From the IMG/VR virus record IMGVR_UViG_3300030372_005500: a stretch of 64,000 bases of DNA; one strand, given 5' to 3'. Below the pieces are notes generated by a model. The model ran no database searches, had not been told where the DNA came from, and saw nothing but the letters and a program-made list of their open reading frames with translations. Shown one piece after another: positions 32,635-51,525 of this stretch. The number at the start of each line of letters is the position of its first letter. Within the stretch, counting starts at the first letter, position 1. The position numbers and the translations under genes are program-made. This DNA comes from an uncultured virus (IMG/VR IMGVR_UViG_3300030372_005500) (taxonomy: Duplodnaviria > Heunggongvirae > Uroviricota > Caudoviricetes).

Positions 32635-32690
32635 TGTGCAAATACTGTGAAAGCGGACACGATTATTTGTGGGAGAATTGCGATGCCTAA
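32634..32690 (+). CDS. Cys/His micropeptide MCKYCESGHDYLWENCDA
   Basis: TAATG-coupled, CxxC..H..C pattern. Confidence 0.35.
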   Translation: MCKYCESGHDYLWENCDA

Positions 32691-33795
32691 ATTCAAAATA
32701 AGAGATTCACAAGTAAAATATCAGGAAGATAAAGAAAAGAGACCTCTATCAAAATATGAAATGATTAATAGGGGATATAATTCAAATTTAACATTTACTA
32801 CACAAGAGCAAATGAGAAGAAGTGCAGTCAAAGAATTTTCATATGGTGGCCGTTACTATGATGTACAGGAAGTTTCAGGAAAGAGAAGAAGAAAATATGG
32901 AGAAATGGGTCCCCAAGTATTCATACCACCTCAAGACAGACTTTACAACGGAGCTATGGTGTGGACAAGAGATTATAGAAGCCCAGTAGATGCTGAAACT
33001 TTATATTCTACTCAGGTTAAGAGTGATGCTGACCTATCAAGAAGGCCAGCACATATATTGTCAGTCTATTCAAACCCTACGAGGGAAGAAAAAAGATTTG
33101 AGATATATCAATTTGAGGAAGTAAGCGACAAAATCTATGGCAAACCAGTCTCAGCAGCCGAAAGGAAGAAAGCAGCATTTGCACAGAAGAGAGGTGAAAC
33201 ATTCCCAGAAGGTTTGAAGGACTTAGAAGCCCCGAAACAATCTACTACTACGGACCTAAGGAATTCTGGAAATATAGAAGACAAAGTAAAATTAGATTTA
33301 TTACAAAGAGGAATGACAGTAGAACCAGGCAATCGCTTTGGTTCCTTATTTATTGCAAGAGACAGTTATGAAAGAGACCCTGTCACTGGAGCAAAATTAA
33401 ATCATTCAGATTATTCTATCGCAGTTATCCCAGAATCAAGTGAAGTACCTTATTGGACATTAACAGGACTTACAAGAGTAACTAAAGCTACTGGAAAAGG
33501 ACAATATATTATAGCTATTGTAGCAGATGATGGAAAAGTAAGATATGTTGCCTTTGATAGAATTGGCGGAGGAAAGAATGGTCCTCGCAATAATTGGAAA
33601 GTAAGAAAGAGATTACAAGACTCAGGAATAGAGTTTAAACGAGGTTTCTGGAACGAAACAAATAAGAATAAGAACCTAAGGCGTGAGATCAACAATCATT
33701 ATTTCGGAGGGCCTTCTGATTTTCATTTAAGCAAAGAAGAAAGAAAGAAACGCTGGTCAGCATATAGAGATGAAGGCAAAAGGGAGTTTAATTGA
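32683..33795 (+). CDS. Protein with a tRNA-intron endonuclease (EndA/Sen) catalytic-domain homologue at about 33277-33564
   Basis: DLLQRGMTVEPGNRFG..YER..HSDY..V.PE..LTGLTRV..GK..IIAIVADDG.V.Y matches the archaeal EndA C-terminal pattern DL..RGY.VK.G.KYG.DF..YE..HS.Y.V.V..E..L.G..RVA.SVRK..LIAIVD.DG...Y (recalled, not searched). Confidence 0.75.
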   Translation: MPKFKIRDSQVKYQEDKEKRPLSKYEMINRGYNSNLTFTTQEQMRRSAVKEFSYGGRYYDVQEVSGKRRRKYGEMGPQVFIPPQDRLYNGAMVWTRDYRSPVDAETLYSTQVKSDADLSRRPAHILSVYSNPTREEKRFEIYQFEEVSDKIYGKPVSAAERKKAAFAQKRGETFPEGLKDLEAPKQSTTTDLRNSGNIEDKVKLDLLQRGMTVEPGNRFGSLFIARDSYERDPVTGAKLNHSDYSIAVIPESSEVPYWTLTGLTRVTKATGKGQYIIAIVADDGKVRYVAFDRIGGGKNGPRNNWKVRKRLQDSGIEFKRGFWNETNKNKNLRREINNHYFGGPSDFHLSKEERKKRWSAYRDEGKREFN

Positions 33796-33986
33796 TGGGT
33801 AAGAAATCAAAACACTATTTCAGAGACGGAACACCATATAAGGGGCCTTATCATAAGATGCCTGATGGTACCTTAGATACAGGAAAGACACACACCAGTA
33901 GTTCAGTGAGAATATTCCATCTTAATGAGTTGCCAACAAAAGCAGCAAAAGCAAAAGCAAGGAGATTTGAATTCAAACTTAAATGA
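33795..33986 (+). CDS. Small His-rich basic protein of a type common in marine viruses
   Basis: HYFRDGTPYKGPYHKMPDG..TGKTH motif. Confidence 0.6.
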   Translation: MGKKSKHYFRDGTPYKGPYHKMPDGTLDTGKTHTSSSVRIFHLNELPTKAAKAKARRFEFKLK

Positions 33987-34555
33987 GCGATAGATACAGT
34001 TCAGGTTATTCCGCAGCATTAAAGAAGAACAGAGAGCAAGAGAAGCGTCAACAGAAAAGAATTGAATTAAAAGAAAAAGCAAAATCATTTTTACCAAGCA
34101 ATCCATTTAGGGCAAGAGCAAAAGACAATGAAGGCATAAGAACTTCAAACAAGTTTAGTAGACAAATACCAAAGAGCGGCAATAGGCCACGCAATGTAAT
34201 TTATGTTTTAGGTAAAGTTAAAGAAGCAAATGACCCTAATCTAACTCAAAAAACAAGATTTAAGAGATTAGATGAGGCTGAAAGAAGGATACAGCAAGAT
34301 GGTGAAATGAGAGGATATTATACTAAACATGCACAAATAATAACGGGCGGAAGGCCGACTGAATCTGAAAAAGAAGCTGCAAAACAATTTGTAAATAGCT
34401 CAATAAGGTCATACCCTGGAAACAGTAGAGATAGGCAAGTTAGATTAGGAGTTGCAAGCTGGATGATAACTAAATCAGATTACTTCTGGAACGAAGCAAA
34501 TCGCAGCGGTGCACTTAAATCATATGAAAAATGGGAGAAGAGATACGGTGAGTAA
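33983..34555 (+). CDS. Basic hypothetical protein
   Basis: 190 aa, ATGA overlap. Confidence 0.7.
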   Translation: MSDRYSSGYSAALKKNREQEKRQQKRIELKEKAKSFLPSNPFRARAKDNEGIRTSNKFSRQIPKSGNRPRNVIYVLGKVKEANDPNLTQKTRFKRLDEAERRIQQDGEMRGYYTKHAQIITGGRPTESEKEAAKQFVNSSIRSYPGNSRDRQVRLGVASWMITKSDYFWNEANRSGALKSYEKWEKRYGE

Positions 34556-34826
34556 ATATCGATTAAAAAAAGCTGGAGTTTCAAAATACAATACTCCAAA
34601 ACGCACGCCCAATCATAAAACGAAATCTCATATTGTTGTAGCTAAAGATGGAGATAAAATAAAAACTATAAGATTTGGACAACAAGGTGTAAAAGGCTCT
34701 CCAAAGAAGAAAGGCGAAAGCAAAGCATACAGAATGAGAAGATTATCTTTTAAGGCAAGACATGCCAAGAATATTAAGAAAGGTAAACTTTCAGCAGCAT
34801 ATTGGTCAGATAAGGTGAAATGGTAA
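34548..34826 (+). CDS. Small basic viral protein (IRFGQQG...SFKARH...SAAYW..KVKW type)
   Basis: Motif pattern recalled from marine phage hypothetical proteins; likely GTG start 34548. Confidence 0.65.
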   Translation: MSKYRLKKAGVSKYNTPKRTPNHKTKSHIVVAKDGDKIKTIRFGQQGVKGSPKKKGESKAYRMRRLSFKARHAKNIKKGKLSAAYWSDKVKW

Positions 34827-35557
34827 TGAGTAGATATCGAAGAAGAGCACCGCCAGTTTCCAGAACAACTCCTTTCAAAAAGGGAGTAAGTCCTACTTTA
34901 CAGATAAGACAACAAGTCCAGGATGCTGAAAAAAACAGAGAAAAAGATTATCAAAAGAGGCGTGAACAGTTAAGGGAAAGAATAAATGCCCGTGTTAAGC
35001 AATTAGAACAGTATAGATCACAATTAACAGAAGTTCAAGCAGTAGGTCAAGCAGTTTCAAGGAAAGAAGCTAAAGATAACATAAAAAAGAATAAACAAGA
35101 AGTTAAGAAAAGAAAGACCTACATTGATGCCTCTGGTAAGAAAATAAAAGAAGACCAAAATACAAAAAAGGTAATGAATAAGGCAGTAATTTCTCTACCA
35201 CCTAAGAAAGTATTTTCTAACCCAGATACCTGGGTTAAGATAGATATGGATGGTGACAGAAGCACTGAAAACGATAAGTGGAAATTAGAAGATATTGAAA
35301 AGACAATGAACTTATTTGTAAAACAAGGTAAGGCCGTAACTGCAGACCCAAGCGAAATAAAGGAAACAACAGGAGGGCAGAATGTATACAAGTATTCTGG
35401 AAAAACACTTTGGGAAGGAGTTACAGTAATCTATGATGAGGATTCAAAAGAAATATGGGCAAAACAAGAGATTAAAAAGCCCAGACAGGTAGAATATACC
35501 AAAAACGAATTAGCCAACTTCGCAGTAAGCGAAGACGGTTTTGCGGAGGACTTCTAA
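34826..35557 (+). CDS. Hypothetical protein with N-terminal coiled coil
   Basis: TAATG coupling; MSRYRRR start. Confidence 0.7.
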   Translation: MSRYRRRAPPVSRTTPFKKGVSPTLQIRQQVQDAEKNREKDYQKRREQLRERINARVKQLEQYRSQLTEVQAVGQAVSRKEAKDNIKKNKQEVKKRKTYIDASGKKIKEDQNTKKVMNKAVISLPPKKVFSNPDTWVKIDMDGDRSTENDKWKLEDIEKTMNLFVKQGKAVTADPSEIKETTGGQNVYKYSGKTLWEGVTVIYDEDSKEIWAKQEIKKPRQVEYTKNELANFAVSEDGFAEDF

Positions 35558-35809
35558 ATGAGTGCAGCAAAGATAGCTGGTTATTTAGCTCCCTATTTAG
35601 TCAAAGAAGGCATTGACATGGCCAAACCGAAGGTAAAGGGATTCTTTACCAAAGAAGAACACACCCATGCTGATGGTTCAAAAACCACTCAGGAAATAAA
35701 AGGTGATATCAAGGGCGGTAAGGCAAAGAATGTTGAAGTCAAGACTAAATCAGATGGATCTATAACACCAGTAAAAGAAACAAAAGTAACATACAAACTA
35801 AAAAAGTAA
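35558..35809 (+). CDS. Small basic hypothetical protein
   Basis: 83 aa, GGAGG upstream. Confidence 0.65.
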   Translation: MSAAKIAGYLAPYLVKEGIDMAKPKVKGFFTKEEHTHADGSKTTQEIKGDIKGGKAKNVEVKTKSDGSITPVKETKVTYKLKK

Positions 35810-39704: not shown

Positions 39705-39904
39705 TTAAAAAAGCACCTTTATATACTACTTATACCTATATAAGGGTAGAGACAAAGTTTGAGTATTTTACTTGTAATTCCTACTTATTAGGGCCTCTCA
39801 AAAGGAGGTAGTTCCGATTTGGAAGGGTTACATATGATTTTTAGGAGTCTTACTGATTATTTTGCGTGATTAATCAGGCTTAAAGAGAGTTATAGTAATT
39901 ATTC
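39705..39904 (+). promoter_or_regulatory. Intergenic control region with TATA-like boxes upstream of the hairpin-punctuated array
   Basis: TTTATATA at about 39718 after an A-rich BRE-like run; TTAAAG at about 39880, about 25 nt before the first hairpin. Confidence 0.4.
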
Positions 39905-39975: not shown

Positions 39976-40003
39976 AGGCCTTCGGGCCTTCAGGTGAAAA
40001 ACC

Positions 40004-40258
40004 ATGTTTAACATACAAACAGCAATAATAGCAACATGTCTATCACTAATTGGACTAATATTAGCCCACGTTAGTGTGACAGTAGAACCAAGCATAGCAA
40101 CAGCAGCAGGAATATTTTGGCTAATAAATGCCTTCGCCCTGGTGCTAAACATAATGCTAACGCCATTTACACCATTGGCATCAGTAACAGCATGCTTTAA
40201 TTGGATAAATCTCCAAATTTTAGCATACTATTGTGATGGTCATGGAGTGGTGTGGTAG
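40004..40258 (+). CDS. Small membrane protein (2-3 TM)
   Basis: 84 aa hydrophobic; element plus AGGTGA SD upstream. Confidence 0.7.
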   Translation: MFNIQTAIIATCLSLIGLILAHVSVTVEPSIATAAGIFWLINAFALVLNIMLTPFTPLASVTACFNWINLQILAYYCDGHGVVW

Positions 40259-40288
40259 AAGGGCCTTCGGGCCGTCAGGTGAAAAACC

Positions 40289-40426
40289 ATGGATAAAAAT
40301 AAAATAAAAGAAACCAGAAATAAATATTTGACTCCTTTTGAATTAAAGGAGTTTAAGCAATTGAGAGATTGTAAGGGCCTTCGGGCCGTCATCTGTAATC
40401 ACATCCAGGGCCGTAGGGGTGTGTAG
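40289..40426 (+). CDS. 45 aa hypothetical peptide
   Basis: Element plus AGGTGA SD upstream; reads through the 40376 element. Confidence 0.4.
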   Translation: MDKNKIKETRNKYLTPFELKEFKQLRDCKGLRAVICNHIQGRRGV

Positions 40427-40441
40427 ATCAAGGCCCATCAG

Positions 40442-40801
40442 ATGAGTGAAACACTAATATCAACAAGATGTGTAGAATGTGGCTCAGACACAGTGAAGGA
40501 CGGATATGTGAATAGATGTTCTTACAGTGGTGAAGGTATTGACGCATATAATTGTGGACAATGCCAATCAGCATTAGAATACTACGTTTTTGGGGACTCA
40601 GCATATGAAGATACTGAGACTTACGAAGAAGTAGAAGCAATAGACCATGCAAGGGAAAATGACCCTGATTGGGCTGAAAAACATTGTGACGAAGAGAGCT
40701 ATGAAAAATATCTTGAAGAAAGAATAGAAGAAATAGATAAACAAGACCCAGGTGCAAAACCTTTCAGAGAATTGGTTCAGAGCATTTGGGCAAGGGCTTA
40801 G
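40442..40801 (+). CDS. Zn-ribbon-like acidic protein
   Basis: CVECG and CGQC pairs; element upstream. Confidence 0.7.
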   Translation: MSETLISTRCVECGSDTVKDGYVNRCSYSGEGIDAYNCGQCQSALEYYVFGDSAYEDTETYEEVEAIDHARENDPDWAEKHCDEESYEKYLEERIEEIDKQDPGAKPFRELVQSIWARA

Positions 40802-40819
40802 GCCTGTCAGGTGAAAACC

Positions 40820-41047
40820 ATGGTATCGACAAAATACAAAAAGAATTTCCAGAAAATGGAATTAAAGAAGTTTGGGATATTCAATCCTAAATGGAGCGAG
40901 CCGTTGGAAGTATTTCCAACGCATCAAAAAGCATCAGAAGCACTTATAGATGCCTTTGACCACAGATCAAGGAACTGTATGTGCACAGATTGCTTACAAA
41001 GTGGGATACACGAACCAGAAGTGTGCGTGATACTCCCCGTGGCCTAA
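40820..41047 (+). CDS. Small Cys-containing hypothetical protein
   Basis: CMCTDC; ATG 40820 after GGTGA (or in-frame GTG 40811). Confidence 0.65.
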   Translation: MVSTKYKKNFQKMELKKFGIFNPKWSEPLEVFPTHQKASEALIDAFDHRSRNCMCTDCLQSGIHEPEVCVILPVA

Positions 41048-41099
41048 GGGCCGTCATGTTTTTATATTATTTCGCAGTATATTATAATAGAGCAATCAT

Positions 41100-41393
41100 A
41101 TGGTAAATTTCAATAGAGAAAAAAGAAGCTCAAAACAAATAGATAGACGAGAAGCGAGAAAACTGAAGCTAAGGCTCTTTAGAGTCCATGCGGAGAGTGT
41201 TCAATTACCGTTTATTCTCGTTTGGGCAAAAACAAAAGATGATGCATTAGATTGGGCAAAGCAACAGCCAATAGATGATTGGTATGAGCACGAAACTAAG
41301 CCTCATTTTGTACAGGAACACCAGGCAGAGTTAATTGAGCATGTAAATGACTTAGTTAGCAAAGGTCAGAAAGTTCCAAAGGCAGGGGAGTAA
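41100..41393 (+). CDS. Hypothetical protein
   Basis: 97 aa; ATC-AT-ATG start context; stop in the next hairpin loop. Confidence 0.7.
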   Translation: MVNFNREKRSSKQIDRREARKLKLRLFRVHAESVQLPFILVWAKTKDDALDWAKQQPIDDWYEHETKPHFVQEHQAELIEHVNDLVSKGQKVPKAGE

Positions 41394-41402
41394 TCCCGTC
41401 AC

Positions 41403-41552
41403 ATGAGCGAGAAAACAGCACTTTTTTTTGCTACAATAGATGGATTCGATGATAATAAGTTAGGAAAATTATCAGAAGAAATTGAAGATGTAGGAAAAAA
41501 ATATGGAGTAAAAATTTGGTTGGATGCAGTAATAGAGGCACCAACAGAATAG
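41403..41552 (+). CDS. 49 aa hypothetical protein
   Basis: Bounded exactly by two elements; not in ORF track. Confidence 0.65.
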   Translation: MSEKTALFFATIDGFDDNKLGKLSEEIEDVGKKYGVKIWLDAVIEAPTE

Positions 41553-41569
41553 GGGCGTAAGCCCGTCAG

Positions 41570-41794: not shown

Positions 41795-41811
41795 GGGCTT
41801 AAGCCCGTCTT

Positions 41812-42334: not shown

Positions 42335-42682
42335 ATGGGAACAAGATGTAACATAAAAGTGACTGATGGTCATGATACATTATGGTTCTATAGGCACTGG
42401 GATGGTTATCCATCTGCAGTAGAGCCAAGTTTAGAACCACTAATGGAGAAGTTAAAAGAAGGTAAACTTAGGACCAATGTAGGTCAGTTTGCTGGTTGGT
42501 TAACTATAATTGGACATGAGGAAGCTGGAAATCCTAAAATGGGTGAAGCATGGAAATGTGGAAACTATGAGCCTACAACAGGCGAGCATGGTGACATTGA
42601 ATATCTATACACTATAGATCTAAAGAATAAAACATTACATTGTTTAGATTTATATGAATCCAAAAGAGGAATGTGGGCCTGA
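42335..42682 (+). CDS. Conserved viral hypothetical protein (MGTR...Y.HWDGYP...HGDIEY.Y type)
   Basis: Motif pattern common in phage early regions; bounded by elements. Confidence 0.75.
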   Translation: MGTRCNIKVTDGHDTLWFYRHWDGYPSAVEPSLEPLMEKLKEGKLRTNVGQFAGWLTIIGHEEAGNPKMGEAWKCGNYEPTTGEHGDIEYLYTIDLKNKTLHCLDLYESKRGMWA

Positions 42683-42694
42683 GAAGGCCGTCAT

Positions 42695-42943
42695 ATGGAA
42701 CAAGAATTAGTAGACATAGATAAGTTACAAAAAAGGTTATTGAAAAAGAATGGATGCGGTATACAAGGCCCAGGGAATGGAGGATGGCCTTGCAATAGTT
42801 GTTTCCACGCAATGGAAATACCTGGATTGAAACAAGATATACACGACTATTGGTTAGCAGTATTAGCTGTAAGAGGCGATTATGAGTGGGTTGAACCCAA
42901 TCATGAACTAATAGAAGAGTTATATCATGCATTAGGGGCTTAG
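42695..42943 (+). CDS. Hypothetical protein (C..WPC..CFH)
   Basis: 82 aa, bounded by elements. Confidence 0.7.
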   Translation: MEQELVDIDKLQKRLLKKNGCGIQGPGNGGWPCNSCFHAMEIPGLKQDIHDYWLAVLAVRGDYEWVEPNHELIEELYHALGA

Positions 42944-42952
42944 GCCCGTCTT

Positions 42953-43510
42953 ATGCCAAATTGGTGCGAAAATTCAACAAAGATTGAAGGAAAGAAAGAG
43001 ATAGTCTTAGACTTTCTCAAAGCAATAGGAAACGGAGATACAGATAGCGAGATGTGTTTCGACTTCGACAAGATATTACCTGTTCCTGAAGAATTCCAAG
43101 GAGTTCATGAAGGCAATACCACAATAGATGGTAAGCAGGTAACATATTGGAGAGAAGTTGGTACCAATCAAATCGCAATCAGTAACTCTGAGATCAACCG
43201 ATTAACCAAGAAATATGGTTCTTTCGGATGGTATAACTGGTCAATAGAAAACTGGGGGACCAAATGGCCTCCAAGTGAGACCTTTGCAAGGACATATGAT
43301 TTAGATGAAGACTATGGCGTGCATATAGATTATGACACGGCTTGGTGCCCTCCAACGGGGATTCTAAAGAAATTACAGGCAGATTGGCCTGAATTAAATA
43401 TCCGAACAAAATGGCGTGAGGAAGGTATGGGCGAAGAAGGATTGATTAAATTTAATCCAGATGGTTCAGCCAACTCAGAGTCTTACACAAGAAGTATAGA
43501 TGACTGGTAG
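42953..43510 (+). CDS. DUF1281/YubB-type ferredoxin-like domain protein
   Basis: MPNWCEN, FDFDKILPVP, WYNW..ENWGTKW, (F/Y)DTAW.PP motifs. Confidence 0.75.
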   Translation: MPNWCENSTKIEGKKEIVLDFLKAIGNGDTDSEMCFDFDKILPVPEEFQGVHEGNTTIDGKQVTYWREVGTNQIAISNSEINRLTKKYGSFGWYNWSIENWGTKWPPSETFARTYDLDEDYGVHIDYDTAWCPPTGILKKLQADWPELNIRTKWREEGMGEEGLIKFNPDGSANSESYTRSIDDW

Positions 43511-43527
43511 GGGCGAAAGCCCGTCTT

Positions 43528-43758
43528 ATGACATATAGAATAGTTATAACAAGAAACGGAGATTATGTAGCAGGACAAGCAAACAGATTAGACAATCTGG
43601 TAAAAAGCTTTAAGTTAGATGACGAAGAAGAATTTCTCGAATGTGTAGGAGAAATGCAGAGTTTATCTGATTATAGCCTGCAAGAGATATTTTATGCATC
43701 AGAGCATGAAAAGGAGACTTTTAATCTGACAAAATATCTCAGCAACAAGGGGGATTAG
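43528..43758 (+). CDS. Hypothetical protein
   Basis: 76 aa, bounded by elements. Confidence 0.7.
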   Translation: MTYRIVITRNGDYVAGQANRLDNLVKSFKLDDEEEFLECVGEMQSLSDYSLQEIFYASEHEKETFNLTKYLSNKGD

Positions 43759-43767
43759 CCCCGTCAA

Positions 43768-44511
43768 ATGGTATTAAAAGTAACCAGAAAAAGCGGCAAT
43801 ACGAAGACAGGACCGATTGCCGTAACAAATAGGTCTGGAAAGCAAAACATTTTTGGAACTTGCCCAGATAGTTGTAAGTTGATGTTACCTGGTCACAAAG
43901 GTAGTGATGAGGTCGATGTCGATTATCTTACGGCATTAAGAAAGGCAGTCCCAGAAAAAGGCAAGGCGTGGACTTATACCCACTCCATAGCTTTTAGAAG
44001 GCGATTTAGGCCAAGTAGAGAAGGAGAGACCTGTATAAATTCATCATGTGATACCATTGATGATATTTTGGATGCCCAAGATAGAGGACATCCAAGTGTG
44101 ACAGTAATACCTGAGCAAGGAGCAACTGAATTTATTCGGAAGCTTCGAGGTAAAGGGATAAAAATAGGAATCTGTCCAGCACAGTTAAAGAAAGATATGA
44201 CCTGTTCTAATTGTGGTGGTGCAAGTGGACCTTGGTGTTCAATGCATGACCGCCACTTTACAGTGGGATTTTTATCTCACGGAACAGGAAAGAAGCAAGC
44301 AGAAGACTGTGAAAAACAAGGAGGTTGTTATGCAGCCTACTTTAGGACAAGATGGCAATGGGATAAATTAGCCCTAAAAGAAGAATCTAAACAAACCGAT
44401 GGAGAAAAACTCCTTGAGTTTGCAGAAACTTTACCAGAAGGTAGTTTACTACGTCACCATGTCGTCGGTGATATGATGAAGGACACAAAATCTCGGCACT
44501 TCGAGTGCTGA
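43768..44511 (+). CDS. Cys-rich phage protein (Gp88-like)
   Basis: SGN.KTGPI.VT, TCP.SC, WTYTH, CPAQ....TC..C, CYA, LRHHV.GD motifs. Confidence 0.6.
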   Translation: MVLKVTRKSGNTKTGPIAVTNRSGKQNIFGTCPDSCKLMLPGHKGSDEVDVDYLTALRKAVPEKGKAWTYTHSIAFRRRFRPSREGETCINSSCDTIDDILDAQDRGHPSVTVIPEQGATEFIRKLRGKGIKIGICPAQLKKDMTCSNCGGASGPWCSMHDRHFTVGFLSHGTGKKQAEDCEKQGGCYAAYFRTRWQWDKLALKEESKQTDGEKLLEFAETLPEGSLLRHHVVGDMMKDTKSRHFEC

Positions 44512-44531
44512 GTGGGGCTTCGGCCCGTCAT

Positions 44532-44693
44532 ATGGATATAAAAGAAATTAAATATATAAACAAGGAATTGAATGGAAAAGATATAGAGGCTATATCAGAG
44601 ATTATTCATGAAGCCTTAGTTGAAAAAGAAATTAGTTATGAATCATTTAGCTATGAGATACACGTTAGCTATAATGAACTAAATGGGGAGTAA
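44532..44693 (+). CDS. 53 aa acidic hypothetical protein
   Basis: Start reassigned to ATG 44532 after the element. Confidence 0.65.
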   Translation: MDIKEIKYINKELNGKDIEAISEIIHEALVEKEISYESFSYEIHVSYNELNGE

Positions 44694-44702
44694 TCCCGTC
44701 AT

Positions 44703-44846
44703 ATGGAAACTAAAAATAAGGAGTCATGTTCACATGACCACCGAATAACAAGAATTAGTTGGAAAGATAATTACTCAATTTCTGAATGTCAGAAATGTAA
44801 AATAGTATGGAATGAAGAGACTGGTGAAGTTATTAAAAGGCCTTAA
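44703..44846 (+). CDS. 47 aa Zn-finger-like microprotein (C.H...C..C)
   Basis: Bounded by elements; not in ORF track. Confidence 0.65.
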   Translation: METKNKESCSHDHRITRISWKDNYSISECQKCKIVWNEETGEVIKRP

Positions 44847-44855
44847 GGCCATCAT

Positions 44856-45791
44856 ATGAGTTTAAAAGATGAGCTGATAGCATATCTGGCAGACCCTAAA
44901 ACGCTAAAGGATATTTATCCAGCATTTAGAAATGTTAAACCTTCCACAATTAGAGGAAGATTAAACGAGAATGTTGGTAAATGCTTCAAACGTGTTACAC
45001 GTGGAGTATACTTAGCAACAAAAGGGAATAGCCAATGTGTTATCATCGAAGGAGACGCATGGGATAAGATCAAGGATTTTGAGGATGATTCAATAGATGT
45101 AATCATCACAGACCCACCTTACTCATGCTTGGACCAGCAAATGAAAGTCGGTTCAACACGAAAGCGTAATCTTAATCGTGGCTGGAAATTTGATACAAAG
45201 GATTTTGATTCAGAATTACTGAATCATTTCTATAGAGTATTGAAGCCAAAAGGTCACTTCTATACGTTTTTACCTGCAATAGCTCATGATACAGTTGAGT
45301 ATAATGAACAGATTAGAAAATTAGCTATAGATTGTGGATTTTATTTTCACAAGATAGCTATTTGGGATAAAGGTCATATGGGAATGGGTTACCATTTCCG
45401 TAATAGACATGAAACAATATACTTCTTTTCAAAGGGGTATGTTGGGGCAAAAGATTTGCCTATGACGTATGCTGATAATGGTTCAAGACTGTGTTTAACA
45501 AAACCCGATGTTTTGAAACACACGAGACCACATCATACGAAGAAAATACATGAGACCGAGAAACCAGTTCAATTACTCGTTGATATCTTAGAGTATTGCA
45601 CTAAGCCAGGCGATGTAGCTCTGGACCCTTTCGGGGGTTCTTTGAGTTTAGCTTTGGCATGTATGGAAACTAAGACAAATGCAATAGTGATTGAAAAGGA
45701 CAAAGAAATGGTCCAAAAGGGAATACAGCGTGTGGCGGCACACGCCCCTTCAGATGAAAACGAAACGAACCGCATGGTTCGGCTTCAATAA
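44856..45791 (+). CDS. N6-adenine/N4-cytosine DNA methyltransferase (beta class) with N-terminal HTH-like extension
   Basis: IITDPPY catalytic motif, H.TEKP..L, VALDPFGGS SAM-binding motif. Confidence 0.88.
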   Translation: MSLKDELIAYLADPKTLKDIYPAFRNVKPSTIRGRLNENVGKCFKRVTRGVYLATKGNSQCVIIEGDAWDKIKDFEDDSIDVIITDPPYSCLDQQMKVGSTRKRNLNRGWKFDTKDFDSELLNHFYRVLKPKGHFYTFLPAIAHDTVEYNEQIRKLAIDCGFYFHKIAIWDKGHMGMGYHFRNRHETIYFFSKGYVGAKDLPMTYADNGSRLCLTKPDVLKHTRPHHTKKIHETEKPVQLLVDILEYCTKPGDVALDPFGGSLSLALACMETKTNAIVIEKDKEMVQKGIQRVAAHAPSDENETNRMVRLQ

Positions 45792-46449
45792 CATCAAAAC
45801 GCTATACAATGGACAGCTAAAGGTATTGGACCTATTCTCTGGTTTAGAGGGTTGGTCACAAGCTTTTAGAGACAGAGGTCATGATGTATTAACTTTGGAT
45901 AGTGATCCAAGGTTTGATTCTGACATCTGTATAGACATAAGGGAATTTAGTACATTACAACTTCCCTGGAAGCCAGATATAATTCTGGCATCACCGCCTT
46001 GCAACGCATTTTCTGTTGCAAGCATAGGAAAACATTGGGGTGGTGGCAAGAGAGCTTATGTGCCTAAATCAGAAGGTGCAAAGCTTGGTATCGAATTAGT
46101 AGAACATACTAAAGATTTGATACAAGCCATAGACCCATATTTCTTTGTGATAGAAAACCCAAGAGGTTTACTAAGGAAATTAGGACTTCTTGATGAGTTT
46201 GAAAGGCATACGGTGACATATTGTCAATACGGAGAGACAAGAATGAAACCTACGGATCTCTGGGGTGGTTTTCCACCCAGTTTGAAGTTAAAGGACCCAT
46301 GTAAGAATGGTGCTCCTTGTCATGAAGCTGCTCCAAGAGGAGCAAGAACTGGCAGTCAAGGCTTGAATAAGTTTGAGAGTGCCAAAATACCGTATAAATT
46401 AGCTGAAGCCGTTTGTATAGCCGCAGAAAAGGATAGAAGCCGAACGTAA
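45754..46449 (+). CDS. C5-cytosine DNA methyltransferase-like protein (short form)
   Basis: VLDLFSG, ASPPC, IENP motifs; likely start ATG 45754 after an extended element. Confidence 0.8.
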   Translation: MKTKRTAWFGFNNIKTLYNGQLKVLDLFSGLEGWSQAFRDRGHDVLTLDSDPRFDSDICIDIREFSTLQLPWKPDIILASPPCNAFSVASIGKHWGGGKRAYVPKSEGAKLGIELVEHTKDLIQAIDPYFFVIENPRGLLRKLGLLDEFERHTVTYCQYGETRMKPTDLWGGFPPSLKLKDPCKNGAPCHEAAPRGARTGSQGLNKFESAKIPYKLAEAVCIAAEKDRSRT

Positions 46450-46564
46450 ATCGGTTTATTGATACTGATAAGTCTCGTAAACGATACGTTTGGTTTAAAT
46501 ACATCCTAACACTATATATTAATGAGGATAACGGGGAGTTCATGGTGGTCTCCCCCTCAATCAG

Positions 46565-47680
46565 ATGAGTGAAGAAAAAACTGTCTCTTTAAAAAAAGAG
46601 ACATTTGAAAGCATAGTGGACCTTGCCTCAGAATTAGAGAGGCAGGGAGGCAGCAAGTTAGACCTTGTTGTAGATCCAAGAAACCTATCTGCAGAGGTTG
46701 TCACAGACGGTGACAAATCTCAAGTAGTAGTTAATGTGCCAGATAATGGAACTTTTCCATTAACTGACCATGCACATGCACAAGTAAGTGATAAGCTGAA
46801 AATCCCAAAGCGGTATTATGACCGCATGAAGGATAGCAAGCCTGATTTACTTTGTGAAAATGTAAATGAATGGCTACAGGAGGATACTCCAAGACTTCTA
46901 AGAATTCTTGAAGTATTTCCAGGTGATGGGCTCAAAATAAGAGCCTTTTTATCTGACAGGTATAGAGTTCTGGATAATCACGGATTGCTTGGAGCATCGT
47001 TACAGGCTTTACAAGGCATCAAAGAGAAAGGAACTGATGTCGATATAGTCAGGACGAGTTTAACAGAAACAAACATGTATATCAAAGCCCGTTCACCCAG
47101 TTTGGGTGTGGACTTTGGTGAAAGAGGTGAAGTACACCCAGGAATTATTATCTCTAATTCAGAGGTAGGTTCTGGTGGAGTAAAAGTATCTCCCTTTTTC
47201 TATTTCTTAGCATGTTCAAACGGATTAATATCCGAACAAAAGTTCGGTAAAATCCATTTGGGTAGCAAGTTAGAATTAGGAGAACTTGTTTCACAGCAGA
47301 CTCAAAATTTAGAGGATGCAGCAGTTTGGAGTTCTATAAACGACCTGATAAGCGGCACATTTGATGCCGATGGCTTTGACGTGCTTATGAAACAACTGAA
47401 AGCGACTACCGAAAGGGAAGTTCTAAATCCAGTTGAAGCAGTCAACAACGTGGTTAAAGAATTCAAACTACCTGAAGGACACATGGATACACTCCTTAGT
47501 GAGTTCTCTACATCAAGAGACTACACACAATGGGGTTTGTTCAATGCCGTAACTGCAGTCGGTAAGACTGTTGGCGGTGAGAACCAACGTGTAGAATGGG
47601 AAAAGACAGGCGGCAAAATAGCCGTCATGGATGGGGGTCAATTCGAGAGATTGGCACCTCTTCCTGAAAATGGGGCGTAA
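46565..47680 (+). CDS. DUF932-like protein
   Basis: L.IP..YYDRM, RAFLSDRYR.LDN, G..ISNSEVG.G...V......CSNG, T.WGL.NAVT motifs. Confidence 0.7.
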   Translation: MSEEKTVSLKKETFESIVDLASELERQGGSKLDLVVDPRNLSAEVVTDGDKSQVVVNVPDNGTFPLTDHAHAQVSDKLKIPKRYYDRMKDSKPDLLCENVNEWLQEDTPRLLRILEVFPGDGLKIRAFLSDRYRVLDNHGLLGASLQALQGIKEKGTDVDIVRTSLTETNMYIKARSPSLGVDFGERGEVHPGIIISNSEVGSGGVKVSPFFYFLACSNGLISEQKFGKIHLGSKLELGELVSQQTQNLEDAAVWSSINDLISGTFDADGFDVLMKQLKATTEREVLNPVEAVNNVVKEFKLPEGHMDTLLSEFSTSRDYTQWGLFNAVTAVGKTVGGENQRVEWEKTGGKIAVMDGGQFERLAPLPENGA

Positions 47681-47764
47681 GCCCGTCAAATGGGCATATA
47701 GCACACTTGTGTGAAGACTGATTGGTGAAGCATTCTTAACATAACCTCACACAAGGCCCTTCAT

Positions 47765-48133
47765 ATGGCTTGGACAGCAAAAAACAATGAAGAAATCGAC
47801 GCATATATTAAAAAAAGTAACCTAACAATAAATACGAAAGATACTAAATTTCTATATTGTAGGCCACGAAATGTAGTTGAAGCAGAGAAAAGAAGACTTA
47901 ATTTATTAAATAGATTAGAAGAGATCATTAGATGTTCTAAAAAGTTGATAGATGAAAATATAATTCGTTCTCAGCTTTCAGCTATGAGATATATACATGC
48001 TGGAGATGAAAAAGGAAGAACAGAGGCGATTAAATTTGATGAAATTGTAAAATCAGATGAACGCCTTATAAGAATATGCAAAGAGCTTATAGATATAGCT
48101 AACAAAAAGCATAATTCAAAAAAGGGGAAGTAA
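47765..48133 (+). CDS. Hypothetical protein
   Basis: 122 aa, bounded by elements. Confidence 0.7.
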   Translation: MAWTAKNNEEIDAYIKKSNLTINTKDTKFLYCRPRNVVEAEKRRLNLLNRLEEIIRCSKKLIDENIIRSQLSAMRYIHAGDEKGRTEAIKFDEIVKSDERLIRICKELIDIANKKHNSKKGK

Positions 48134-48143
48134 TTCCCGTCGT

Positions 48144-48329
48144 ATGAAAGAATTTACAAATAAAATATCAGAATTGTTTTATGGTGAGACACATGAAGAT
48201 GCAATTAATAATAATACTTGCGTAATATGCAAGGATAAAGTAACAAAATTTAAAGATGAAGTTAGTATGAGAGAATACAAGATTTCAGGATTTTGTCAAA
48301 AGTGTCAAGATGAAACATTTGGGGCGTAA
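48144..48329 (+). CDS. Zn-finger microprotein (CVIC...EY.ISG.CQ.CQD..F)
   Basis: 61 aa, two CxxC. Confidence 0.75.
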   Translation: MKEFTNKISELFYGETHEDAINNNTCVICKDKVTKFKDEVSMREYKISGFCQKCQDETFGA

Positions 48330-48338
48330 GCCTCTCTT

Positions 48339-48566
48339 ATGAGTAAAGAAGTAGTAACAGGAAAACTATTTGAAGAACACATTTGTGGATGCAAGGTATA
48401 TGTTTTAGAAACCATAAGCAGCAATCCTACAAGAAATTATGTAAATGAATTATGTCATTATCATGATGAATATGTAGGAAGTTCTATACGAGATATGGAA
48501 AACGACCCAAGTAATTACGAGGGCATAGATGGCTGCGAATGGGCAGATAAACTTGCACAAGAATAG
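48339..48566 (+). CDS. Small Cys/His protein
   Basis: 75 aa; CGC..C..H. Confidence 0.7.
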   Translation: MSKEVVTGKLFEEHICGCKVYVLETISSNPTRNYVNELCHYHDEYVGSSIRDMENDPSNYEGIDGCEWADKLAQE

Positions 48567-48600
48567 AAAGAGATAAAAATGTGCCTATACTGGCACTCAG

Positions 48601-48981
48601 ATGAGCAAAGCAAAAGCAAGTCCACAGCATCCTAAGTGGAGCGTCTTAGATGACGCACCCAGGGGAAGGCAAGTTTTGGTTGATATTGGATTATCCAAAT
48701 CACCCAAAGAATCTAAGACTAACTACGGTTTTGGACAATGGGACGGTGAGATCATACATTTATGGTCAGCACCAGAGATTCATTCTTTAGTTCTTATTAG
48801 AACTAAGCAATGGACAATCGACATGGTTGAAACCGTTATGGAAAGATACACTGCGACTTTCAAGACAATCAATGATGATATAGAGTCATATGATTTTCAA
48901 GAAGTCATTGCAGAAGAGTTAGTTCAGTGGGATAGTATCCCAGCAAGGCCAGTACCTCGACCAGAGGCTCTGGAAGAATAG
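48601..48981 (+). CDS. Hypothetical protein
   Basis: 126 aa, bounded by elements. Confidence 0.7.
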   Translation: MSKAKASPQHPKWSVLDDAPRGRQVLVDIGLSKSPKESKTNYGFGQWDGEIIHLWSAPEIHSLVLIRTKQWTIDMVETVMERYTATFKTINDDIESYDFQEVIAEELVQWDSIPARPVPRPEALEE

Positions 48982-48998
48982 GGGCGAAAGCCCGTCAT

Positions 48999-49277
48999 AT
49001 GAAATTGAAAGAATTAAAAATAGAAATCAATGATGCAATAGAAATGAAAGATGTAGTAACATTAGCATATCTGAATAATGAGCATCACGACCTTATAGCA
49101 ACTGAATTAAATAATTTTGATTCAGCGCATCTTGAAGAGTTAACAACCAAAATGGAGAATTTTGATGTAGACTCGGCAAGATTGAGCTATAAAGAAGTGG
49201 AAGAGTATTATTCTAAAAGTAAAAAAGATGCATTAACTATCTTGAATGAATTTGCCTCAAAAGTTGGTTTAGAATAG
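48999..49277 (+). CDS. Acidic helical hypothetical protein
   Basis: 92 aa, bounded by elements. Confidence 0.7.
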   Translation: MKLKELKIEINDAIEMKDVVTLAYLNNEHHDLIATELNNFDSAHLEELTTKMENFDVDSARLSYKEVEEYYSKSKKDALTILNEFASKVGLE

Positions 49278-49294
49278 GGCCTGAGGGCCGTCAT

Positions 49295-49447
49295 ATGGAA
49301 GAAGATGAAAGAAAATGCTTTACCTGTGGTTGGGTTGGAGATTATGGAGAATTCATGCTAATAAATGAAGGGTATGAATGCTTAGAATGTTCAGAAAAAA
49401 ACAGGACAGAGTATGAAAACAGGAAATGGGGCGACATAAATGCCTAA
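49295..49447 (+). CDS. 50 aa Zn-finger microprotein (CFTCGW...CLEC)
   Basis: Bounded by elements; not in ORF track. Confidence 0.7.
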   Translation: MEEDERKCFTCGWVGDYGEFMLINEGYECLECSEKNRTEYENRKWGDINA

Positions 49448-49468
49448 CCTGGGCCTTCGGGCCATCTT

Positions 49469-49633
49469 ATGAGTGAAAAAGAATTAAATGCTTTCAAAGA
49501 TGGTGTTGCAAATGCACTATTAGAAGGCAAGGTAAATGAAGACTTAAAAGACAAATATTGTAGACATAGTTATAAACAAGGCTATGACTTTGGTTTAACT
49601 ATGTATTGTAGATATAATGAATTAGATAAATAA
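49469..49633 (+). CDS. 54 aa hypothetical protein (Y.QGYDFG)
   Basis: Bounded by elements; not in ORF track. Confidence 0.65.
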   Translation: MSEKELNAFKDGVANALLEGKVNEDLKDKYCRHSYKQGYDFGLTMYCRYNELDK

Positions 49634-49651
49634 AGGCCTAAGGGCCATCAG

Positions 49652-50053
49652 ATGAATAAGGAACAAACATTAGATTATTGGGCTTCATTGGAGCCTGATG
49701 AGCCTATGCTACCACGTCCTATACGTCCAGACCACAAAGGGTCTACCTACACCTGTGATTCAATTAGAATAACAGGAAGTAGAGCGTATATTGATAGTTG
49801 GTTAGGCAACAATAAGTGGCTATTGGAAAGAGAGAACCATAAAACTCGGCTACAAGTCACATACAAGGAGACTGTTGATAGAGATACAGGACTTCCGACA
49901 GGAAAATACAGTTTTTACTGTCAAGTATGGGCAAGAAGTAAGGCCTTGAATAATTATTCAAGAGCAGTACGCAAGGAGCCAGAGATAACTGTAGATCTCA
50001 AACCAATGCAGAGCCACAAAAGTTTAAAGGAGTTAGCTAATAGCTTCTTATGA
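49652..50053 (+). CDS. Hypothetical protein
   Basis: 133 aa, element upstream. Confidence 0.7.
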   Translation: MNKEQTLDYWASLEPDEPMLPRPIRPDHKGSTYTCDSIRITGSRAYIDSWLGNNKWLLERENHKTRLQVTYKETVDRDTGLPTGKYSFYCQVWARSKALNNYSRAVRKEPEITVDLKPMQSHKSLKELANSFL

Positions 50054-50081
50054 ACGGAACAGGGGGCGAGAGTCCCGTCAG

Positions 50082-50234
50082 ATGAGCATATTAACAATTA
50101 TATTGACTTGCGCTGTAATAATAGCGATTGGAATTCCAATTGTATTACACCAAGCAGGCAGATTGAAAGCTGTCGCAGAATCAAAATATGGAAAGAACTG
50201 GAGGCGATATGATGTTTCGGATAATAGAGAATAA
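50082..50234 (+). CDS. 50 aa single-TM protein
   Basis: Element upstream; MSILTIILTCAVIIAIGIPIVL. Confidence 0.6.
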   Translation: MSILTIILTCAVIIAIGIPIVLHQAGRLKAVAESKYGKNWRRYDVSDNRE

Positions 50235-50346
50235 TAAGGTAATATTTGAAACGGATAATATTAATAAATTAATAGAGTATATGGAAAGAAATGAAGAGAC
50301 ATATAATCCAAAATTTATATCGTCCACTGCATCCAGACACAGATAA
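50209..50346 (+). CDS. 45 aa hypothetical peptide
   Basis: GGAGG SD; stop abuts the 50347 element. Confidence 0.5.
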   Translation: MMFRIIENNKVIFETDNINKLIEYMERNEETYNPKFISSTASRHR

Positions 50347-50363
50347 GGCCTTACGGCCATCTT

Positions 50364-50609
50364 ATGAAAAAATACAGATTTTGGTTTCACTACAATAAAC
50401 CAGAGAGTCGTAAAACTGGGAAACCAGTTATGACGGTTCATTACAGAGACCGATGTATTATGGCAGATAATATTGAATGTAATGTAGAAACCGAGACGCA
50501 TAGGCGTAAGAGACAACCTTACATGGTAATCAGAGGTTGGGCAGAGAGCGTTAAAATACGGATAGATTCAACACTTGATTATCAACACGGTGATGTAGTG
50601 ATCAACTAA
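50364..50609 (+). CDS. Small viral protein (FWFHYNKP......MTVH....C type)
   Basis: 81 aa, bounded by elements. Confidence 0.7.
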   Translation: MKKYRFWFHYNKPESRKTGKPVMTVHYRDRCIMADNIECNVETETHRRKRQPYMVIRGWAESVKIRIDSTLDYQHGDVVIN

Positions 50610-50626
50610 GTGCCTTCGGGCATCAT

Positions 50627-50839
50627 ATGGCAAAAGATTTTGAAGTAAGCTTTGTAGAAACAAGTTGGTATTCAACAACAATAATTAGATTGAGTAACAA
50701 TGAATACGAAGAAGCAATAAAGAACGACAACCTAAATGAAGTATTACAAGAGTTATATTGGGATGACACATCTCCTCCTGAGATAACAGATACAACAAAA
50801 CCTGAATACTTCATAGAAGAGGTTGAAAAAGCAGAATAG
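50627..50839 (+). CDS. Acidic hypothetical protein
   Basis: 70 aa, bounded by elements. Confidence 0.7.
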   Translation: MAKDFEVSFVETSWYSTTIIRLSNNEYEEAIKNDNLNEVLQELYWDDTSPPEITDTTKPEYFIEEVEKAE

Positions 50840-50856
50840 GGCCTTCGGGCCATCTT

Positions 50857-51099
50857 ATGGATATAAATGAAAAACGTTGGCTAACTAAAATTAAAAAACA
50901 ATTAGTCGGTAAAACAATAGTAAAAATAGAATACATGCACGAAGATGTAGTAGAAACCAATATGTGGTCTTCAAGACCCATATGTATACTATTAGATGAT
51001 GGTAATTGGATTTATCCAATGTGTGATGACGAAGGTAATAATGGCGGAGCCATGGGAACTACCTTTGAAGATTTACAGACAATACCTGTATTCTATTAG
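50857..51099 (+). CDS. Small viral protein (L.GKTI..I.Y....DDEGN.GG type)
   Basis: 80 aa, bounded by elements. Confidence 0.7.
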   Translation: MDINEKRWLTKIKKQLVGKTIVKIEYMHEDVVETNMWSSRPICILLDDGNWIYPMCDDEGNNGGAMGTTFEDLQTIPVFY

Positions 51100-51116
51100 G
51101 GGCGAAAGCCCGTCAT

Positions 51117-51428
51117 ATGGAAATAAATGAATTAATAGACAAAAGACAGAATTTAGAAGAACAGTTAAAAGAAATCAATAGAAACATAGAGAAGGAAACA
51201 ACTAAGACAAAGCCAAAACAGTACAATGTAAACTTTGTTTTAGGTGTTAACTGCAATATGATTGTTTTAGCACATTCTAAAACTGAAGCAAAAGAAATAA
51301 TAGACGAATTTGTAGAAGATGTTCAGTTTTCAGGAGAACTGCATGACCAAGATTTTGAGGATACAGTAGAAGACGGATATTATGAAAAGTCAGAAGGCGA
51401 TAAGCCTCAATATTTATTTCTTGAATAA
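51117..51428 (+). CDS. Acidic hypothetical protein, last gene of the array
   Basis: 103 aa, element upstream, terminator downstream. Confidence 0.7.
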   Translation: MEINELIDKRQNLEEQLKEINRNIEKETTKTKPKQYNVNFVLGVNCNMIVLAHSKTEAKEIIDEFVEDVQFSGELHDQDFEDTVEDGYYEKSEGDKPQYLFLE

Positions 51429-51430
51429 GA

Positions 51431-51468
51431 GCCCTGTCACAGGAAACACCTGTGATGGGGTTTTTTTT
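51431..51468 (+). terminator. Stem-loop plus T8 terminator
   Basis: CCCTGTCACAGG-AAACA-CCTGTGATGGGG-TTTTTTTT. Confidence 0.75.
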
Positions 51469-51488
51469 ATTTTGAAAATCGCTAATCA

Positions 51489-51525
51489 GGCCCTATCAGG
51501 CAAACAACCTGGTAGGGCTTTTTTT
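51489..51525 (+). terminator. Second stem-loop plus T-tract terminator
   Basis: GCCCTATCAGG-CAAACAA-CCTGGTAGGGC-TTTTTTT. Confidence 0.75.

Follow-up and report, generated by a model that had tools for sequence, protein, structure and literature searches.

A Hairpin–NUC Element Repeated along a Viral Gene Array: RNA-Library Joints in One Register and a Possible Route to One-Gene Rings

Introduction

The 64,000-nucleotide stretch of DNA analysed here (the window) comes from an uncultured virus of the Caudoviricetes (IMG/VR record IMGVR_UViG_3300030372_005500), a marine virus whose hosts are likely archaea. It contains a gene for a protein resembling the splicing endonuclease EndA and, about 6 kb away in another gene block, an array of some 30 short genes separated by small hairpins. 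The question raised by this locus is whether the RNA of the array is cut at the hairpins and, if so, by which enzyme and into which products. An initial annotation had proposed an mRNA-dicing programme, in which the EndA homologue or the EndA of the host would cut in or after a conserved NTC triplet.

The circular RNAs of archaea described in PMC4344496, PMC7714728, and PMC12558985 consist for the most part of introns, rRNA intermediates, and non-coding RNAs. A search of literature titles and abstracts returned neither a system of the present kind nor a virus-encoded EndA; subscription papers fall mostly outside that scope, and supplements could list a viral EndA annotation. The reading that we prefer, to which we give somewhat less than an even chance, is that the array RNA is cut after NUC, probably by the EndA-derived protein, and that the pieces are closed into rings by an RtcB-type ligase.

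Results and Discussion

The Gene Array and Its Element

The genes of the array are co-directional, and no stretch between two cuts contains more than one main gene, whose stop codon lies upstream of the cut, the sole exception being 44856–45791. Since the stop codons lie immediately 5′ of the hairpin or within its loop, pieces cut at the elements would contain whole genes. Shine–Dalgarno-like words are rare at the array starts (4/30 vs 16/30, P = 0.002). TATA words were not located at the elements of the array, and promoter-like sites number 35 compared to 37.6 in shuffles, i.e., there is no excess. The array looks early.

The element itself occurs in 34 helix-bearing copies between 39989 and 51114, all on the + strand, and consists of a G+C helix of 4–5 bp followed by NTC-NN-(A)TG, about 20 nt in total. 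The T and the C of NTC are invariant (34/34), while the ATG follows two bases after NTC in 29 of the 34 copies; the other five, which have no ATG in that position, still retain the TC. In the 24 copies having a 4-bp stem and a tetraloop, 96/96 stem pairs are Watson–Crick or G–U, with the third pair exchanging between G–C and C–G (13 vs 11), and the loops are of RNA type (UUCG, GNRA). A strict scan finds 27 matches in the array, compared to none on its minus strand and none on either strand of the remaining 61,438 bases; 200 shuffles give 0.02 matches on average (maximum 1). The 4-bp helix with a conserved NTC that had been noted at the outset is thereby borne out as a strand-specific element with an exact spacing to the AUG.

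Covariation is seen between the base that precedes UC and the one 5′ of the helix (G·G 18, A·A 5, Watson–Crick or G–U 7 among the 34 copies; P = 0.001 overall), but inside one stem family it weakens to P = 0.09, and descent may be the explanation. To judge from this pattern, the base before UC may close a fifth pair. The cut discussed below falls after the third base following the 4-bp stem; if the fifth pair forms, it falls after the second unpaired base, which is the register used by EndA.

The initial annotation had also pointed to three extended copies with a bulge on the 5′ strand and to a likeness with relaxed BHB/BHL motifs. The bulged fold is the minimum-energy fold of the copy at 45719, while those at 46523 and 47692 can be drawn but are not the predicted fold (Table 1), and the bulge is thus confirmed in part. 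The likeness holds loosely, as a helix with unpaired bases. It does not extend to a flanking outer helix, for which no register around the element pairs above shuffles, and the loops stay intact with a single cut.

Several other assignments were considered and rejected. A long-range BHB between elements is rejected, most stems not being self-complementary between copies. A cut at NUC suggests a hammerhead ribozyme, whose substrate follows the NUH rule; however, there is no Rfam match in the window, and 0 cores with stem II are present in the 73-kb record. No CRISPR or Cas6 family was detected by Pfam or Rfam. Charybdis elements, as far as their published description goes, are unrelated.

Table 1. 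Positions of the features discussed (window numbering; joints given as donor>acceptor)
Feature	Positions	Strand	Runs	Details
EndA-derived protein, 370 aa	32683..33795	+
TATA-like boxes, putative polycistron promoter, 5′ of array	39718..39745	+
Gene array, ~30 short genes with 34 helix-NTC-NN-(A)TG elements between	39977..51428	+
Element, NTC end 41400, joined to internal site 41123	41386..41405	+	X1	side 46
575-nt unit, Api92-like gene (PF18406), back-joined	42951..43525	+	X1, X2	43518>42944; sides 86 and 66; 12 shared letters
Extended element: outer helix, 6-nt bulge on 5′ strand, inner hairpin, TTC-AG-ATG	45717..45756	+		z −3.1
Extended element before DUF932 gene, outer helix and 5–6-nt bulge	46523..46567	+		drawable only, z −0.5
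Element, NTC end 47687, joined to internal site 47460	47673..47692	+	X5	side 30
Extended element, 10-nt bulge	47692..47767	+		drawable only, z −0.5
174-nt unit, 50-aa gene, back-joined	49293..49466	+	X2	49464>49291; side 45; 2 shared letters
263-nt unit, 81-aa gene, back-joined	50362..50624	+	X1, X2	50620>50358; sides 66 and 82; 4 shared letters
Element, NTC end 51114, joined to internal site 50944	51100..51119	+
Two long T-tailed hairpins at array end, putative terminators	51427..51525	+		fold z −6.9, −5.8

Joints in Ocean RNA Libraries

The RNA data are assembled contigs of marine metatranscriptomes, which are unstranded and in which each joint is one contig per run. Six distinct back-joints were found within the array, and all six start at an element, the chance of which is ~1e-12 under uniform placement. 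The only register common to the six is NUC|NN-AUG, that is, a cut after the C that leaves a leader of 2 nt; the joint 51114>50944, having no shared letter, fixes this register. The transcript ends predicted at NTC, with leaders of 2–3 nt, are thus found. Three joints link consecutive elements and give whole-gene rings of 174, 263, and 575 nt. The remaining three, one of which (47687>47460) comes from a second sample, link an element to unrelated internal acceptor sites with 0–2 shared letters, as would be expected of a free RNA 3′ end. The donor hairpins retain their loops in the joints, with one cut per element. The dicing reading accordingly stands as regards the ends at NTC, while the appearance of the pieces as back-joined rings had not been foreseen. 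Two joints starting outside the array, 38490>38432 (TSP3 repeats, foreign letters between) and 38502>49537 (X3, side 21), were left out of the count.

Linear pieces bridging a short-loop element in sample S1 number 0/7 in X1 and 0/4 in X2, where 4.5 and 2.3 are expected (P = 5e-4 and 0.03), counts that rest on the longest records listed (8 of 26 for X1). Uncut copies do exist, as pieces bridging elements amount to 3/7 in X6 and 1/5 in X5. No back-joint was seen in X6, and no array joint in X3 or X4, which are relatives with small shares. In X1, 5/26 array contigs carry back-joints compared to 0/13 contigs of the upstream block, a difference that is not significant (P = 0.11).

Homology-driven template switching and assembly tangles are disfavoured as sources of the joints. 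Five of the six joints carry 0–4 shared letters, and none links the element pairs in which 23, 21, and 19 letters are identical. Moreover, the array does not contain any 25-mer twice, and repeats therefore cannot have tangled the assembly.

A more specific alternative is that the array is diced into linear near-leaderless mRNAs and that the rings arise in the library, when the reverse transcriptase reaches the 5′ end of a molecule and jumps to that molecule's free 3′ end. Jumps at fragment ends could produce the three joints between NUC and internal sites, and all six joints come from one study and one library type, the whole-gene rings all from one sample (two runs). However, the same three rings recur in the two runs (the 174-nt unit in X1 as a matching loose end at 49471) and are the assembler's path at mean depths of 3–19, which a rare artefact seldom becomes at such depths. 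We consider this alternative improbable, and it would itself still require RNA ends at NUC. The internal acceptors can also be accommodated by the ring closure that we prefer, as RtcB would join a cyclic-phosphate end to a 5′-OH made by decay (PMC4344496).

We have also considered that the joints stem from DNA, the elements being recombination sites at which single-gene mini-circles are excised, perhaps by a viral tyrosine recombinase, in the manner of PeSL or integron attC sites. PeSL repeats are described as yielding DNA mini-circles (PMC2839356), RNA libraries can contain DNA, and a tyrosine-recombinase-like gene is present at G000 69174–69743, with matches below the cut-offs. Such an origin is nevertheless quite improbable, because the joints avoid the longest homologies, their shared letters are few in all but one case, and the internal acceptors have no core in common with the element. 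Strand specificity, exact AUG spacing, RNA-type loops, and the lack of a promoter also set the element apart from the PeSLs of that description. In addition, X1 and X2 leave the flanking non-coding bins uncovered, which speaks weakly against bulk DNA and is the only use made here of cover gaps.

Finally, the element could be a translation signal only, either a termination–reinitiation spacer or an initiation gate, with the joints being noise. This would agree with the fixed distance of 9–21 nt from stop to start, with the lack of Shine–Dalgarno sites, with the existence of uncut RNA, and with the reinitiation reported as common in archaea (PMC6728339). Yet it leaves unexplained both the six joints in one register and the TC kept in the five ATG-less copies, and its probability is in our view very slight.

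The EndA-Derived Protein

The EndA-like gene proposed at the start is confirmed by a match to PF01974 above the Pfam cut-off (E = 1.2e-6), by a match to the M. jannaschii enzyme 1a79 (E = 8e-4), and by an hhalign probability to EndA of 98.9. When the model of the protein is compared with 48,161 chains, splicing endonucleases take ranks 1–9 (Z 12.0–8.3), with 7uxa_A at Z 12.0 (rmsd 1.9, 98 aligned) and 1a79_A at Z 10.4; as modelled, the protein has the EndA fold. The catalytic-type domain (~195–295) keeps R218, H241, R265, K272, and R293. It is accompanied by a second alpha/beta domain (~34–155) and by a C-terminal extension that is family-specific. TIGR00324, the profile for a full-length EndA with its N-terminal domain, matches the C-terminal half only, at 33.8 bits compared to a cut-off of 59.6. 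We have also considered residues 38–148 as a second EndA unit, but they give no profile match to EndA, and their model has a related alpha/beta fold that is Hjc-like (Z 8.1, rmsd 3.1, 98 aligned).

The Tyr-His-Lys triad is incomplete. The column of the catalytic Tyr, occupied by Tyr in 7/7 cellular-type EndAs, contains Arg (R226) in 11/11 family sequences, and the nearby Y229 is not conserved. The His and Lys, on the other hand, are invariant in 38 family sequences spanning 29–100% identity. In the alignment to cellular-type EndAs, 11/11 sequences also have R265 and R293, which match the bulge-sandwich residues (Arg and Arg/Trp) and whose roles are taken from PMC12397907, as well as R/K218, the GxKxG-loop basic residue. 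According to the same source, a Tyr-to-Ala replacement abolishes the activity of the ARMAN-2 EndA.

Both the replaced Tyr and the distance of the gene from the array count against the viral EndA as the cutter, as does its place among basic and probably late genes when the array looks early. The same cut and ring closure at NUC could instead be the work of another viral protein or of a nuclease of the host, be it some other endonuclease or EndA itself, acting alone or together with a viral partner. The EndA-like protein would then be a non-catalytic RNA binder, a specificity subunit, or a decoy of host EndA. The fifth pair, if real, would give the register of EndA, and host EndA is described as cutting mRNA leaders and yielding circles (PMC7714728). 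However, the EndAs covered by PMC6379350 require a BHB or relaxed BHB and cut both sides, while the present element has no outer helix and its loops are found uncut in the joints. Of 42 BHB pairings that can be drawn, just one comes within a base of any cut. The retained His and Lys would moreover be needless in a pure binder. We regard this alternative as rather unlikely. The window contains no tRNA gene that could serve as another substrate.

The family forms a clade of its own (99/96), and dN is well below dS with respect to 4/4 relatives, which indicates purifying selection. The gene is syntenic in 5/5 metagenome loci, all of which end before the position of the array. Scans of viral contigs gave no relatives; two loci found there have a single pattern match apiece and lack an array. 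Genome contigs gave nothing relevant (three single matches, in Acidobacteria), the phage collection no match, and the Atlas searches no usable match. None of these results implies that relatives with the array are absent.

Proposed Mechanism

In the preferred reading, the hairpin–NUC element likely marks where RNA is to be cut. A single long transcript of the array, which we infer to extend from the TATA boxes to the terminators, is the likely precursor, and cleavage behind the C of every NUC would likely divide it into one-gene pieces. The cutting enzyme is probably the EndA-derived protein of the virus, which would leave 2′,3′-cyclic-phosphate and 5′-OH ends. These would be joined by an RtcB-type ligase of the host; RtcB occurs in 4/4 archaeal genomes used as controls, and a search of the virus record did not find it. 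With 2 nt before the AUG and no Shine–Dalgarno site, each piece so released would be a near-leaderless mRNA. Ring closure would rebuild the element and, in most units, bring the stop codon to 9–21 nt from the AUG of the same gene. Such a ring would permit shielding from exonucleases and perhaps successive rounds of re-initiation.

A fuller version of this proposal is gene-by-gene circular mRNA, in which a captured EndA acts as a single-cut Arg-His-Lys enzyme that reads a 20-nt hairpin-UC tag, host RtcB closes some 30 genes into rings, and translation proceeds by repeated termination and re-initiation. We consider it somewhat unlikely that all of these parts hold together. If true, closing whole protein-coding genes into rings at a recurring signal would be a kind of gene expression new to prokaryotic viruses. 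It would also make testable both the translation of circular mRNA by archaeal ribosomes and EndA cutting without its tyrosine, and the 20-nt tag, portable and directing both single-cut processing and ring closure, would constitute a compact RNA tool.

Comparison with Known Systems

In the early polycistron of T7, the host enzyme RNase III cuts at a small number of sites with long stems. The present array would share with it an early viral transcript that is divided at intergenic hairpins into gene-sized mRNAs, but the T7 products keep Shine–Dalgarno leaders and are linear. Cas6/Csy4 enzymes act by transesterification, cutting once at a set distance from the 3′ side of a short hairpin that recurs along the transcript, and thereby turn an array into units, as proposed here. 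In the present case, the units are mRNAs, and the repeats vary in sequence with the pairing kept.

The archaeal EndA/BHB systems described in PMC7714728 and PMC6379350 (tRNA introns, pre-rRNA, and the 5′ UTR intron of Haloferax volcanii HVO_1309) have in common with this locus an EndA-fold protein, a short G+C helix that is followed on its 3′ side by unpaired bases, and probably the circular form and the end chemistry of the RNA products. The central 4-bp helix of the BHB is found in 24 copies, possibly as 5 bp with the closing pair. The element differs from these descriptions in its apparently single cut per site, in lacking an outer helix, and in the sequence-specific UC. Further differences are the 34 sites in what is likely one viral transcript, the putative circles consisting of whole protein-coding genes, and the virus-encoded candidate enzyme with Arg for the catalytic Tyr.

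The PeSL cassettes of T4-type phages, in the account of PMC2839356, likewise have a repeated intergenic stem-loop between stop and start, small accessory genes, and single-gene circles. They carry sigma-70 promoters, terminators, and Shine–Dalgarno sites, and their circles are DNA formed by recombination, whereas the 20-nt element has no promoter, terminator, or Shine–Dalgarno site, and its joints share one phosphodiester register.

Hairpin-NTC Element and Array Layout

The genes of the array are preceded by a short G+C helix followed directly by N-T-C (NUC in the RNA), an arrangement that the initial annotation had described and that our analysis confirms in 34 copies from 39989 to 51114. A strict scan returns 27 matches in the array, against 0.02 per shuffle; the array's other strand and the rest of the record (61,438 bases) yield none. 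The T and C of NTC are invariant in all copies. The stems covary: 96 of 96 stem pairs are kept in the 24 tetraloop copies, with a G-C/C-G exchange. An ATG follows two bases on in 29 of the 34, an AGGTGA word with a later ATG in three, while two have no start there. SD-like words are less common before array starts (4 of 30) than before other starts (16 of 30). The three AGGTGA copies are among the first elements (39989, 40274, and 40806; window 39977-40822), and since their ATG lies 12-13 bases past the cut, these genes would retain an SD-like leader, unlike the later ones.

Stop codons lie inside the hairpin loop or just 5' of the hairpin, so that each NTC-to-NTC stretch holds a complete gene. 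The sole exception is an N6/N4 methylase (44856-45791), whose frame extends 40 bases beyond the cut of an extended element (45749); a cut at this site would therefore separate it from its stop codon. In the region 41794-48329, about one-third of the units have a stop codon as the hairpin loop and a length that is a multiple of three, such that a ring would place the stop 9 bases 5' of the AUG, in frame.

TATA-like boxes lie upstream of the array, which ends in two strong T-tailed hairpins. Between the boxes and the first element (39821-39955) are a long rod-like hairpin and a 12-bp hairpin (z -1.5 and -1.8), neither with an Rfam match, which are possibly a leader or an origin. In the region 41059-41102, gene 41100 has ATC-AT-ATG without a G+C hairpin, downstream of a TATA-like stretch, and this may be an internal leaderless promoter.

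The element had also been likened to the relaxed bulge-helix-bulge (BHB) substrates of EndA. This likeness holds only loosely: the outer helix is absent in every register, and the element is thus not a BHB. Of three extended copies said to carry a bulge 3' of the 5' helix strand, the one at 45719 has a minimum-energy fold as described; those at 46523 and 47692 do not.

Joints at the Elements in Assembled RNA Contigs

The RNA data are assembled contigs, which carry no strand or level information, from runs labeled as marine or aquatic metagenomes; six runs contain part of the array. Contigs of four runs were aligned to 32200-52100 and of three runs to 39700-51700, with run X1 in both. The former alignment gives seven joints, of which five begin at array elements and two, in TSP3 repeats outside the array, were excluded from the array count. 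A sixth array joint comes from the latter, in a two-piece record of X5 (another sample of the same study). The joints do not track homology, and the array has no 25-mer repeats.

Three joints connect an element with the preceding one, giving whole-gene rings (see the table). In the others (41400>41123, 51114>50944, and 47687>47460), the element is joined to a site inside the gene just before it, giving partial rings. The piece of gene 41100 is seen joined at internal site 41123 only, as would be expected if a triphosphate 5' end is not ligatable.

Ring units and further annotated genes. X1 and X2 are RNA runs of one sample; L011 is part of the same virus record.
Feature	Coordinates	Remarks
Ring unit	42951-43525	Joint in X1, X2
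Ring unit	49293-49466	Joint in X2; loose end in X1
Ring unit	50362-50624	Joint in X1, X2
TFIIB-like genes (two)	Window 36265-36918; L011:2410-3084	Divergent; one with C-terminal HTH
Tyrosine-recombinase-like gene	L011:7174-7743	189 aa; short, catalytic part only; scores below family cut-offs
Hydrophobic peptides (four)	L011:8276-9011	56-59 aa; tandem paralogs

The only cut position compatible with all six joints is directly 3' of the C in NTC, two bases before the AUG, presuming that no letters are added at the joints; the whole-gene rings by themselves are also compatible with a cut one base earlier. This agrees with the earlier proposal of a cut at NTC leaving a 2-3 nt leader.

Among the longest linear pieces of the X1/X2 sample, none crosses a short-loop element (0 of 7 in X1 and 0 of 4 in X2, versus 4.5 and 2.3 expected), and one X1 piece spans the long-loop element at 40439. 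Elements are spanned by 1 of 5 linear pieces in X5 and 3 of 7 in X6, which means that linear RNA, either uncut or rejoined, or else DNA occurs as well. Relative to the upstream block, the array shows no significant excess of back-joints in X1 (P 0.11). Dicing at NUC is supported by environmental RNA. We consider RNA-level cutting there by some enzyme highly probable, and the rings probably exist in vivo.

The EndA-Derived Protein

Both profile and fold comparisons match the viral EndA-like protein P0001 (32683-33795) to the catalytic domain of EndA (model pLDDT 63). Its family is small (nine proteins at 63-95% identity, four distant at about 30-40%, and one short fragment) and forms a single clade separate from cellular-type EndAs (support 99/96), the viral and cellular labels being presumptive, for rows that mostly come without genomic context. 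The gene keeps its syntenic position in 5 of 5 loci retrieved, is under purifying selection (e.g., catalytic-domain dN 0.13-0.14 vs dS 0.9-1.0 against loci L002 and L003), and is partly covered by X1 contigs.

All of 38 sequences keep His241 and Lys272, and R265, R293, and R/K218 align with the residues that are described as holding the RNA in the EndAs of ARMAN-2 and A. fulgidus (PMC12397907). The catalytic Tyr column is Arg226 in every family member. Y229, suggested by pairwise alignment as the catalytic Tyr, is not conserved, as 4 of 10 close relatives have Leu or Asn there. P0001 is thus EndA-derived yet lacks the full catalytic triad. A second alpha/beta domain, at residues 34-155, has a related fold but does not match EndA in sequence.

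The gene lies within a run of very Lys/Arg-rich genes of no assigned function (29002-36268). Some of its neighbors (33795, 34524, and 35810) are absent from L002 or L004, where it is retained.

Proposed Mechanism

Most likely, a metal-free endonuclease would cleave a single transcript after UC, one time at each element; the hairpin end would then carry a cyclic phosphate, and the next piece would begin with a 5'-OH two bases before the AUG. Such ends are joined by the ligase RtcB (PMC4344496). A search for RtcB found it in 4 of 4 archaeal control genomes but not in the virus record. Ligation of both ends of one piece would yield a whole-gene ring, and ligation to a decay-made end a partial ring.

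The cut made by EndA follows the second bulged base (PMC12397907); the proposed cut in the array would follow the third base when the count starts at the 4-bp stem. Covariation links the N of NUC to the base 5' of the helix (30 of 34 are G.G, A.A, Watson-Crick, or G-U; P 0.001, and P 0.09 within one stem family); if the two pair, the cut falls after the second unpaired base.

We tentatively regard P0001 as the best candidate for the cutting enzyme, because it is EndA-derived, its binding residues are intact, and the genome has no tRNA or BHB substrate in view. The link is plausible and is rated somewhat short of probable, because the Tyr is missing and the gene lies in another block. Cutting may turn translation on through leaderless starts, stabilize the message, or shut off early genes; the whole-gene design favors use over destruction.

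The system resembles T7 early-RNA processing in outcome and Cas6 in geometry, while its likely chemistry and its circular product are like those of EndA/RtcB. It belongs to none of the nearest classes, since the element differs from BHB substrates and from the T4-type stem-loop cassette PeSL (PMC2839356), and P0001 from triad-bearing EndAs. The comparison drew on PMC6379350, PMC12397907, PMC7714728, PMC12558985, PMC4344496, PMC6728339, PMC2839356, and 10.1101/2025.08.03.668216. Literature searches returned no title or abstract that reports an EndA encoded by a virus, or circular mRNAs of viruses of archaea or of phages. What is new here, and most surprising, is ring closure.

Genome and Host

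The window spans bases 1-64000 of a single virus record of 73,064 bases. The genome is likely circular, its end and start being connected on a contig of a relative. It encodes two TFIIB-like proteins, giant laminin-G proteins, DNA methylases, a PD-(D/E)XK nuclease, and a tyrosine-recombinase-like protein; neither tRNA genes nor Rfam matches were found in the window. TFIIB and EndA suggest an archaeal host. The four hydrophobic peptides resemble the coat proteins of filamentous or spindle-shaped viruses. The laminin-G proteins (5347 and 2814 aa; window 3794-28278) are missing from the syntenic site in L003 (L003:4790-6275). On an unrelated virus contig (L006:3500-5100, minus strand), small genes are preceded by repeats of another short motif, which ends in an SD word.
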